A DNA stretch of 49,502 nucleotides from contig JAFGPP010000127.1 of NCBI GenBank assembly GCA_016936135.1, positions 1 to 49,502 of the forward strand, in the 5' to 3' direction. The translations under genes and the position numbers were made by a program. Source of the stretch: Thermoplasmatota archaeon. GTDB taxonomy: Archaea; Thermoplasmatota; E2; DHVEG-1. Below are positions 21,737 through 48,447 of the stretch, piece by piece (within the stretch, counting starts at the first letter, position 1; the number at the start of each line of letters is the position of its first letter). A model generated the notes under the pieces. It was not told the DNA's origin. It did not search any database and was given only the letters and a program-made list of their open reading frames with translations.

Positions 21737-22646
<910 letters not shown>

Positions 22647-22659
<13 letters not shown>

Positions 22660-23339
22660 TTGCTCCACGCCTTCTTGATATCCTTTCCTTCAATAAAAAC
22701 TAGGCCTTTATCCTTTGCGTATTCTATCGCATTTCGCTTTGACAAGGCTTTGCCGTTTTCTCCCATCATTTCACAGCCGCTTCCAGCAGGGATAAGATTG
22801 GCCATGATAAGTAATGATACAACTAGTTCGGTATGGCCCTGTCTCTCGTCAAGAAGATGTTCTGCGGAAACACATATGGGTATGTGACCAGGTGAACGAA
22901 ACTCTTTTCCAAAAATTTCTAATGATTCGTTAGTGTCAATGTTATTAATTTTTTTTGCAAGTTCAGCAAATTTCTTCATTGTCAAGCTTCTGTCAATATC
23001 AGTTATACCAGTGTAGGTATCGCGATGATTTATATATACAGAAAATGAGGATTTCGTATCATAGGGTATGTCATTAGGTACAAGGTGCTTAAAGACAGGA
23101 TATTGATTTTCAATCTCTGAAAATAAATCAGAAAGGAAAGGAAGTTGCAATTTATTAGCAATGGAATGGGGAATCATTATAAATATAAGTCCTCCGCCAT
23201 CCTTCCTCATTGTTTTAATTGAAGATGGTTTTACAAATTCGCTGGCCATTACTATGTCTGTTTCACCCTCTCTTTTATCATCGTCATATATTAAAACGAA
23301 TTTTCCCTTTTGAAGGCTGGCTATCGCTTTTTCTATCAC
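22647..23339 (-). CDS. ribB: 3,4-dihydroxy-2-butanone 4-phosphate synthase
   Basis: YDDDKREGETDIVMASEF, MRKDGGGLI, NDIPYDTKSSFSV, FRSPGHI and RQGHTE match archaeal RibB. Confidence 0.9.
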
Positions 23340-23393
23340 TTCTTTACAGTCACCTAATATTGAATTTGCCCCCTATAAAATAATTATTGGTTA

Positions 23394-23615
23394 TTACTCA
23401 GAAATGGGTTGATGTTTTTTTCCTTTTTTAGATGCTACAAGATAACGAGTTATATAACCAGCAATGCGATTTCTCAATAATTTACTTGCACCATTAGTCA
23501 GTTCAGCTACTTTATCCTTATTATGCTGAAAATTGTCTGGCATAAACTGGTCAGGAAATTGTTCAATAAGATCCTTCGCAATGGTTTTTATGTATGTTGG
23601 TCTAATATTGCCCAG
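23394..23615 (-). CDS. rps17e: 30S ribosomal protein S17e (eS17), apparent CTG start; absent from the ORF track
   Basis: My minus-strand translation is (L/M)GNIRPTYIKTIAKDLIEQFPDQFMPDNFQHNKDKVAELTNGASKLLRNRIAGYITRYLVASKKGKKHQPISE*. This matches the S17e consensus MGxIRxxxIK...NK..V......SK.LRN.IAGY.TR. GGTGAT lies 3 nt upstream of the CTG. Confidence 0.75.
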   Translation of the reverse strand: MGNIRPTYIKTIAKDLIEQFPDQFMPDNFQHNKDKVAELTNGASKLLRNRIAGYITRYLVASKKGKKHQPISE

Positions 23616-23618
23616 GTT

Positions 23619-23624
23619 ATCACC
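23619..23624 (-). promoter_or_regulatory. Shine-Dalgarno-like GGTGAT upstream of rps17e
   Basis: The minus strand reads aaGGTGATaacCTGggc. The identical GGTGATAAC+start arrangement precedes purM (48451-48456, TTG start). Confidence 0.5.
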
Positions 23625-23903
23625 TTTTGATTGAGAGGCTGGAATACATTCTTGTTATTTAAATCCCTACCTTAGGATGAATTGGCTTGCAGAGTCACTA
23701 TGTTTTTTAGTTTATTCAGTTAAATTGTAGTTTTTTTGAAAATTGATTATAAATGTCTCTTAAATAAAATTTAATTAAGAAATGCAAAATCCACTCAAAT
23801 CGGCTGTTATAGACGTTAAAATCGCTTGATACTTAAACTTTATAAACATTAATATATTAATTGAACAACTGGGGTAAGAGATATTTCTTCAAAGAAACCT
23901 TCT

Positions 23904-46453: not shown

Positions 46454-46583
46454 AGCGGGGGGTTAACGCTTCCCATCATAGCGAGCAATTATCTAACGAT
46501 ATTTGCCTATAAGGGTGGGGTAGCCAGGAGATCCCGACGGGCCCATAACCCGTAGATCAGTGGTTCGAATCCACTCCCCGCTA
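46454..46583 (+). tRNA. Initiator tRNA-Met (CAU) interrupted by a 55-nt insert (putative non-canonical intron) in the 5' acceptor strand
   Basis: AGCGGGG (46454-46460) is perfectly complementary to CCCCGCT (46576-46582). After removing 55 nt the sequence folds as AGCGGGG-TG-GGGT-AGCCAGGAGA-TCCC-G-ACGGG-CCCATAA-CCCGT-AGATC-AGTGG-TTCGAAT-CCACT-CCCCGCT-A. A1:U72 and G29-31:C39-41 are initiator hallmarks. Confidence 0.8.
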
Positions 46584-47421: not shown

Positions 47422-48447
47422 TTAGTAATTCAGCCCCAAATCGGGAAATTCAACACCCTTACCTTCGGTAATTTTTCCAACAATTTTACAATTTGCTGTT
47501 GAATATTTTTTCAATAGATTAACTGAATCTTTAGCATCTTTTTCAGATACTATTATTGCTAATCCCATTCCCATGTTGAAAGTTTGATACATTTCTTTGT
47601 CTTCTATGTTGCCAATTTTTTGAAGAAAATTAAAAATTGGTTGAGGCTCTAACTGATTATCGATTACAAATTTTACCTTGTTATTTAATCTATTTAAATT
47701 TCTTAAACCCCCTCCAGTGATATGTGCGATTCCATGAACCTTTACCTTTTTAAATAATTCAAGCGTTTCTTTAACATAAATATTTGTTGGGGTAAGAAGG
47801 ACTTCTCCAATTTTTTTGCCAGGGTAGTATCCACTTGGGAATTCATTTTGATAATTAAGATTCGCATTTTTTAATACATATCTGACAAGCGTGTATCCAT
47901 TAGAATGTATACCACTGCTCGAAAGCCCAATAATAATATCGCCCGGGGTAATTTTATCCCCAATAACAATGTCTTTTTTTTTTACGTAACCCAAACATGT
48001 ACCAGCAAGATCAAAACCATTAATGATTTCTGGAAGTGACGCAGTTTCACCTCCAACTATCGAAACATTTGCCAGATTAGCCCCAACTTCCAAACCCTTT
48101 CCAATTTCCTTAGTAATTTCAGGTTTTGGGTCCTCTATTGCTAGATAATCAACAAATGCGATGGGTTCCGCACCAACGCATATTGCATCATTTACATTCA
48201 TTGCGATGCAGTCAATTCCTACGGTATCCCATTTTCTCATTGCATTAGCAATTTCTACCTTACTGCCAACCCCGTCAGTGCACAATACAAGGGCATATTC
48301 TCCAAATTCTATTAAGCCGGCATAATGACCTCCAAGTGACTTGCCGATTCCACTCCTTTTTGTTTTTATTGATGATAGCAGGCTTTTTATTGCTTCTTCC
48401 TCTTTGAAAATGTCCACACCGCTTTTTGCATAAGTTGATTTATTCAA
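47422..48447 (-). CDS. purM: Phosphoribosylformylglycinamidine cyclo-ligase (AIR synthase)
   Basis: YAKSGVDI, CTDGVGSK, IDCIAMNVNDAICVGAEP, SSGIHSNGY, AHITGGG. TTG start preceded by GGTGATAAC. Confidence 0.9.
   Translation of the reverse strand: MNKSTYAKSGVDIFKEEEAIKSLLSSIKTKRSGIGKSLGGHYAGLIEFGEYALVLCTDGVGSKVEIANAMRKWDTVGIDCIAMNVNDAICVGAEPIAFVDYLAIEDPKPEITKEIGKGLEVGANLANVSIVGGETASLPEIINGFDLAGTCLGYVKKKDIVIGDKITPGDIIIGLSSSGIHSNGYTLVRYVLKNANLNYQNEFPSGYYPGKKIGEVLLTPTNIYVKETLELFKKVKVHGIAHITGGGLRNLNRLNNKVKFVIDNQLEPQPIFNFLQKIGNIEDKEMYQTFNMGMGLAIIVSEKDAKDSVNLLKKYSTANCKIVGKITEGKGVEFPDLGLNY

Follow-up and report, generated by a model that had tools for sequence, protein, structure and literature searches.

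A conserved CTG at the predicted start of the ribosomal protein gene rps17e in Thermoprofundales

This work deals with rps17e, the gene of ribosomal protein eS17, in a 49,502-nucleotide stretch of DNA from a Thermoplasmatota archaeon (contig JAFGPP010000127.1 of assembly GCA_016936135.1, positions 1 to 49,502, hereafter the window). The gene lies on the minus strand and would start at a CTG codon, for which the original prediction had offered two accounts, genuine CTG initiation or a single-base assembly error converting ATG into CTG. The comparison of relatives supports the former, since the codon is CTG in all 68 distinct orthologs of the window's family, drawn from independently assembled metagenome-assembled genomes (MAGs), and TTG, GTG or ATG in other families. 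As judged from these sequences, CTG does not stem from a sequencing error but appears to be a non-AUG start that has been fixed, under selection, in the gene of a core ribosomal protein. Initiation at CUG by the initiator methionyl-tRNA (Met-tRNAi), directed by a Shine-Dalgarno (SD) sequence, is considered a highly probable description of rps17e in Thermoprofundales (MBG-D).

The rps17e gene and its start codon across the family

The coding sequence occupies positions 23394..23615 of the minus strand, with 73 codons followed by a TAA stop (23396-23394), and its product matches the Pfam family Ribosomal_S17e (PF00833) with E=5e-10 and 39.8 bits, against a cut-off of 22.8, so that the 73-residue S17e homolog described earlier is real. 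Read from the CTG, the product is xGNIRPTYIKTIAKDLIEQFPDQF... Its residues 2-67 align to profile positions 2-66, residue 2 falling on position 2, and therefore the CTG (23613..23615) occupies the position of the family Met1, as had been proposed. The frame is closed by an in-frame TAA at 23655..23657, 14 codons 5' of the CTG, and reads TAA CAA GAA TGT ATT CCA GCC TCT CAA TCA AAA GGT GAT AAC CTG GGC AAT ATT AGA CCA. The interval from TAA to CTG contains, in agreement with the first reading of this DNA, no ATG, GTG or TTG, the ATT at 23645-23643 being the sole other near-cognate codon. The SD box GGTGAT (23619..23624) does end exactly 3 nt 5' of the CTG, and purM (47422-48447, minus strand) does show the identical GGTGATAAC arrangement, followed in this case by TTG.

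The gene had also been described as hidden. This holds for a track of open reading frames (ORFs) restricted to ATG, GTG and TTG, but not for public proteins, since the 73-residue product of this contig, starting with M, is present in a public collection (P0001). A second public product of the same contig is a truncated call of 49 residues from the ATG at 23543 (P0008). NCBI annotations of related MAGs also place M at the rps17e CTG, while other pipelines yield shortened or lengthened products, with 49-residue, MGDNL... and VINL... variants found in public databases. The name 30S ribosomal protein S17e is carried by 271 homologs, and an alignment of 10 S17e sequences contains 32 invariant residues. 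Moreover, the window's rps17e is the single S17e match in its genome (1.71 Mb, 86% complete), as it also is in the same-genus genome G001 and in most genomes at least 90% complete. Sole copy and purifying selection both point to a functional housekeeping gene.

The homologous codon was taken from the genomes of 30 relatives, from 80 loci of named GTDB species and from 9 further outgroup loci. Removal of duplicates left the 68 distinct orthologs of the window's family (f1), which represent at least 22 genera with protein identity down to about 52%, and among which CTG is invariant (68/68). In the sister family f2 the codon is TTG in seven cases and GTG in one; families f3, f4, f7 and f8 use TTG, and f5 and f6 use ATG. 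Within the window's lineage no ortholog indicated a different start or frame: the frame is closed by stops 1-15 codons 5' of the CTG, in most cases with no canonical start in between. Two of the relatives, Thermoplasmatales archaeon SG8-52-3 and SM1-50, are Thermoprofundales/MBG-D genomes (PMC6461988). The S17e tree, with 73 columns, was too short to order the changes among ATG, TTG and CTG.

The pattern of substitution around this codon is informative. In the 68 orthologs, codons 2-5 vary synonymously (GGA 39, GGT 14, GGC 13, GGG 2; AAT/AAC; ATA/ATT/ATC; AGA/CGA) and the residues GNIR are kept, so that the N-terminal region must be translated. The conserved internal leucines Leu16, Leu46 and Leu47 are encoded by CTG in only 4, 3 and 5 of the 68 orthologs, and CTG makes up 7% of leucine codons genome-wide, versus 68/68 at position 1. 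The first codon is therefore constrained as xTG, and specifically with C, not as leucine. Furthermore, all 68 orthologs retain the ribosome-binding site, the distance from the end of GGTGA to the CTG being 4 nt in 45 of them and 5 nt in 23, that is, GGTGAT lying 3-4 nt upstream in every one. The 3' end of the 16S rRNA of G001 reads GGATCACCTCC, and GGUGAU would thus pair with AUCACC, the segment of the archaeal anti-SD that is observed in the 30S initiation complex of P. abyssi (PMC7531240).

Two further observations concern the S17e loci of these relatives. A second, divergent S17e paralog (MGNIRPTYIKR...) occurs in some family genomes, with an ATG start behind GGTGACAAGAA and no ribB downstream. 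Its carriers include G003 (CP070836), G023 and M9B1D (loci L061, L012, L099 and L089), CP070836 having both a copy with CTG (L041) and one with ATG (L061); it was not found in the window's genome (G000) or in G001. In addition, some contigs with the archaeal rps17e-ribB locus (L079, L087, L038, L103) are filed under MAGs of Lutibacter sp. (Bacteroidota), Aenigmatarchaeota and Methanobacteriota, which probably reflects binning contamination or outdated labels.

Predicted initiation at CUG and its alternatives

The upstream regions of 67 orthologs share the layout ccaaagtgTTTAWATAa(g/c)aaaaagATATTCC...ccTTAca...aaaGGTGATnnn CTG. In the window, this corresponds to a putative TATA box, TTTAAATA, at 23656..23663 on the minus strand, conserved at -50 to -43 and preceded in the relatives by a BRE-like ccaaagt, and to a conserved (g)TATTCC box at 23641..23647, a candidate promoter-proximal element. 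From the TATA spacing, transcription is predicted to start within 23630..23637, where the relatives show the conserved ccTTAca, giving a leader of about 15-22 nt. Taken together, a transcription factor B recognition element (BRE) with TATA box (-57 to -43), a promoter-proximal box and, some 20 nt before the CTG, an initiator would produce a short leader bearing the SD.

A sequence of events can be proposed on this basis. From the conserved BRE/TATA promoter, about 45-55 nt upstream, a transcript with a leader of roughly 20 nt would be made, in which the GGUGAU box would pair with the AUCACC of the 16S 3' end and bring the CUG, which lies 3 nt further downstream, into the P site. Met-tRNAi would read the CUG with a mismatch at the first position, and the product would be MGNIRPTYIK..., its Met probably being removed before Gly. 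As regards the origin of the codon, the UUG start seems to be old and widespread in the class, and a single transition to CUG, later fixed, probably took place in one family; this is the simplest direction, because UUG is the widespread state. None of the orthologs has gone back to U or acquired A or G, although synonymous sites close by are saturated, which speaks for selection on C itself. Most likely, the weak codon would have been selected to set eS17 synthesis or to feed back on it, much as, in bacteria, the AUU of infC and the UUG of rpsT serve the autoregulation of IF3 and S20, respectively. CUG may impose a particular initiation rate or factor sensitivity, aIF1 being known to discriminate against non-canonical starts (PMC8211752). 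Autoregulation of the infC/rpsT type would be consistent with the position of eS17, at the end of the chamber that holds the SD duplex (PMC7531240).

The C could also be kept for another reason, namely a small hairpin that sequesters the SD by pairing G-9/G-8 with C-1/C+1, or a site bound by eS17 or another regulator, initiation at CUG being then a tolerated by-product. This explanation is unlikely. In its favour, the C is never replaced by U, even though UUG is the ancestral canonical alternative, and minimum free energy (MFE) folds of single sequences show a weak SD/start hairpin of 3-4 bp in about one third of the leaders, a base pair between C+1 and the leading G of the SD being present in 24 of 67. 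Nevertheless, RNAalifold found no consensus structure in the leaders (0.0 kcal/mol). The base at -1 varies among them, and folds of the 70-nt leaders have a mean MFE of just -6.5 kcal/mol.

Several points weigh against a CUG start read by Met-tRNAi. In E. coli, this codon initiates very poorly. The genome, being 86% complete, leaves room for a second S17e paralog of the ATG type, as seen in some family members. The 16S 3' end is not assembled in it, the anti-SD having been taken from G001, and the 3'-end pattern gave no match in G003 or G009 at up to 3 mismatches. No RNA run covering the rps17e locus was found, and metatranscriptome run X11 of the same study gave nothing at this locus. Finally, 23 of the 68 orthologs have, within the SD, a GTG that falls in frame as codon -3 and could serve as start.

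This last point leads to the possibility that translation starts elsewhere: at the GTG of GGTGAT (through a frameshift in the window), at the upstream ATT 23645, or at the internal ATG 23543, giving 49 residues. Some gene callers do choose the GTG (P0110, VINLGNIR), and the public 49-residue call already mentioned corresponds to the ATG. A start of this kind is nonetheless quite improbable. The GTG is out of frame in the window and in 44 other orthologs, it lies 8 nt from the CTG in some sequences and 9 nt in others, which leaves no conserved frameshift geometry, and the CTG stays invariant even in the 23 orthologs where the GTG is in frame. The ATT is not conserved and lies 5' of the predicted transcription start. 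Initiation at ATG 23543 would remove 24 N-terminal residues, among them the invariant G2, N3, I4 and R5, from a region that is under purifying selection and part of the Pfam core. As for an assembly or consensus error concealing a true ATG or TTG, its probability is negligible: a MAG consensus can contain errors, and the start base is covered by the probable source run (X1) only, runs X2 and X3 reaching no further than 23397-23547 and 23350-23392, but the same C recurs in all 68 distinct orthologs, which come from numerous independent studies and assemblers, and the Logan contig of run X1, an independent assembly, is identical over 23350-23750 at a depth of 11.6, with no other letter at 23615.

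Other genes without canonical starts and the initiator tRNA

In the same genome, at least five further genes have a Pfam-anchored N-terminus and no ATG, GTG or TTG available, each behind an SD-like box. The archease gene (C62:25904, plus strand; L113) has CTG, the same-genus genome having TTG and all others ATG, GTG or TTG. The gene of HsdR (C84:1061, plus strand; L112) shows AGGTGA followed by CTG, the HSDR_N profile beginning at residue 13 and the first canonical start lying 172 codons downstream. For a GT2 glycosyltransferase (C153:4023, plus strand; L180) only CTG or the preceding ATT is possible. GDP-mannose 4,6-dehydratase (Gmd; C36:40280, minus strand; L178) has ATA behind AGAGGTGA, and a B12-binding radical SAM protein (C121:2889, minus strand; L179) would start at or near an ATC behind GGAGG. 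For HsdR and Gmd almost no orthologs were found in the relatives, hence there is no conservation comparison of their CTG and ATA starts. A codon-usage scan for start-less coding regions was noisy, with many antisense ORFs, and only the Pfam-anchored cases were kept. Initiation at CUG thus appears, from these sequences, not to be peculiar to rps17e in this genome.

The initiator tRNA-Met of the window (46480..46583, plus strand) has the anticodon arm GGG-CCCAUAA-CCC, that is, C33 (at 46543) and not the near-universal U33. Among the initiator tRNAs seen (L148-L177, L190-L194), all those of families f1, f2 and f3 have C33, and those of f4-f8 have U33. In a sample of 401 genomes of the phylum, the C33 motif was found in 48 of 53 f1 genomes and 2 of 4 f2 genomes; outside f1/f2 it occurred in 8 of about 343, equal to the hit count of a reversed-pattern control. 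The C33 initiator tRNA is specific to the order containing Thermoprofundales. Outside this order, C33 in tRNAiMet has been reported from multicellular eukaryotes alone, and for the E. coli and yeast enzymes it is an anti-determinant of t6A37 formation (PMC8887486), t6A37 being the modification adjacent to the first codon-anticodon pair. A literature search found no paper describing C33 for initiator tRNAs of archaea.

The lineages with CTG form a clade within that of C33, which amounts to a single evolutionary event, and the association is therefore a lead and not a correlation test. Moreover, C33 is not sufficient for a CTG start, because f2 and f3 keep TTG. A speculative extension, to which we give only a modest chance, is that the whole order may have a metazoan-like relaxed start selection, in which C33 and the loss of t6A37 would make CUG, AUA and AUC usable, the rps17e CUG being tuned or sensitive to feedback. 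The near-cognate starts of several genes of this genome and the apparent AUA start of ribB in many relatives would fit such a reading.

Apart from C33, this tRNA gene is apparently interrupted in the acceptor stem, at the non-canonical position 4/5, by an intron of 29 nt (exon 1, 46480-46483; intron, 46484-46512; exon 2, 46513-46583). Intron-less orthologs read AGCG|GGGTGGGG (also AGCG|GGGTGGGGTAGCC), and nine other family genomes have 29-33 nt inserted there, with an internal hairpin that covaries. In the carriers, a conserved upstream cccatcat pairs with exon 2, and the fold shows a 4-bp AUAG/CUAU helix with a CGA and an AAG bulge at its sides, resembling a bulge-helix-bulge motif. ARAGORN and Rfam miss the intron and fit a shortened tRNA from 46514.

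Relation to known systems and the neighbouring rib genes

Archaeal initiation is usually described in terms of AUG, GUG and UUG only. The assignment of M to the rps17e CTG was already present in public annotation, and the case belongs to the type of conserved weak or near-cognate start codons. Like infC and rpsT, rps17e is a translation-apparatus gene with a long-kept non-AUG start behind a good SD, and its weak codon is apparently selected; unlike them, it is archaeal and its codon is CUG. In eukaryotes, near-cognate CUG initiation is read by Met-tRNAi. The similarity with rps17e includes an e/aIF2-type machinery and the C33 initiator anticodon loop, as in multicellular eukaryotes (PMC8887486), whereas the rps17e site would be set by an SD at fixed spacing instead of by scanning and Kozak context, and its CUG would be the one start that a core housekeeping gene has, unlike those of alternative isoforms or upstream ORFs. 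Within the archaea, a CTG start has been proposed for Haloferax HVO_1510 (PMC8305020) and, from ribosome profiling (Ribo-seq) of Methanosarcina mazei, for about 5% of the unannotated small ORFs (PMC11456600). The likeness is that CTG is proposed as an archaeal start; in contrast with these single genes or small ORFs without deep conservation, the rps17e CTG is fixed family-wide. No paper on a conserved CTG start of archaeal S17e was found in a literature search.

That an entire family has fixed a CUG start in the gene of a core ribosomal protein, alongside an order-wide C33 in the initiator tRNA and other start-less genes, makes rps17e a testable system for how the e/aIF1-aIF2 machinery sets start-codon stringency. 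It also bears on a possible regulation of ribosomal protein synthesis by weak starts in archaea. On the practical side, gene callers restricted to ATG, GTG and TTG miss or shorten such genes, which affects marker-gene sets and estimates of completeness in a sediment lineage of very high abundance.

Downstream of rps17e, the gene order in the window is ribB, ribL and ribC. A 54-nt spacer (23340..23393, minus strand) separates rps17e from its direct neighbour ribB, the gene of DHBP synthase (22647..23339, minus strand, GTG start), which is followed by ribL (22201-22668) and ribC (21737-22204). The spacer measures 54-56 nt in most of 72 loci and holds a conserved (T)AACCCAAWATTTATTTTA box (TAACCAATAATTATTTTA in the window) together with the ribB SD, AGGTGA. 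From its sequence, this box could be a second, internal promoter or a T-tract terminator. A ribB gene on the same strand follows rps17e in 65 of 68 CTG loci, 7 of 8 TTG loci and none of 20 ATG loci.

The start of ribB itself deserves mention. In many relatives the layout is GGGTGAAnnnATA, with an apparent ATA start 4 nt after GGGTGA, and in some of them (L015, L017) an in-frame stop lies just upstream of the ATA. About 20 of the 65 family ribB genes have no canonical start at all there, and the GTG of ribB in the window's genus is supplied by about 10 inserted nucleotides.
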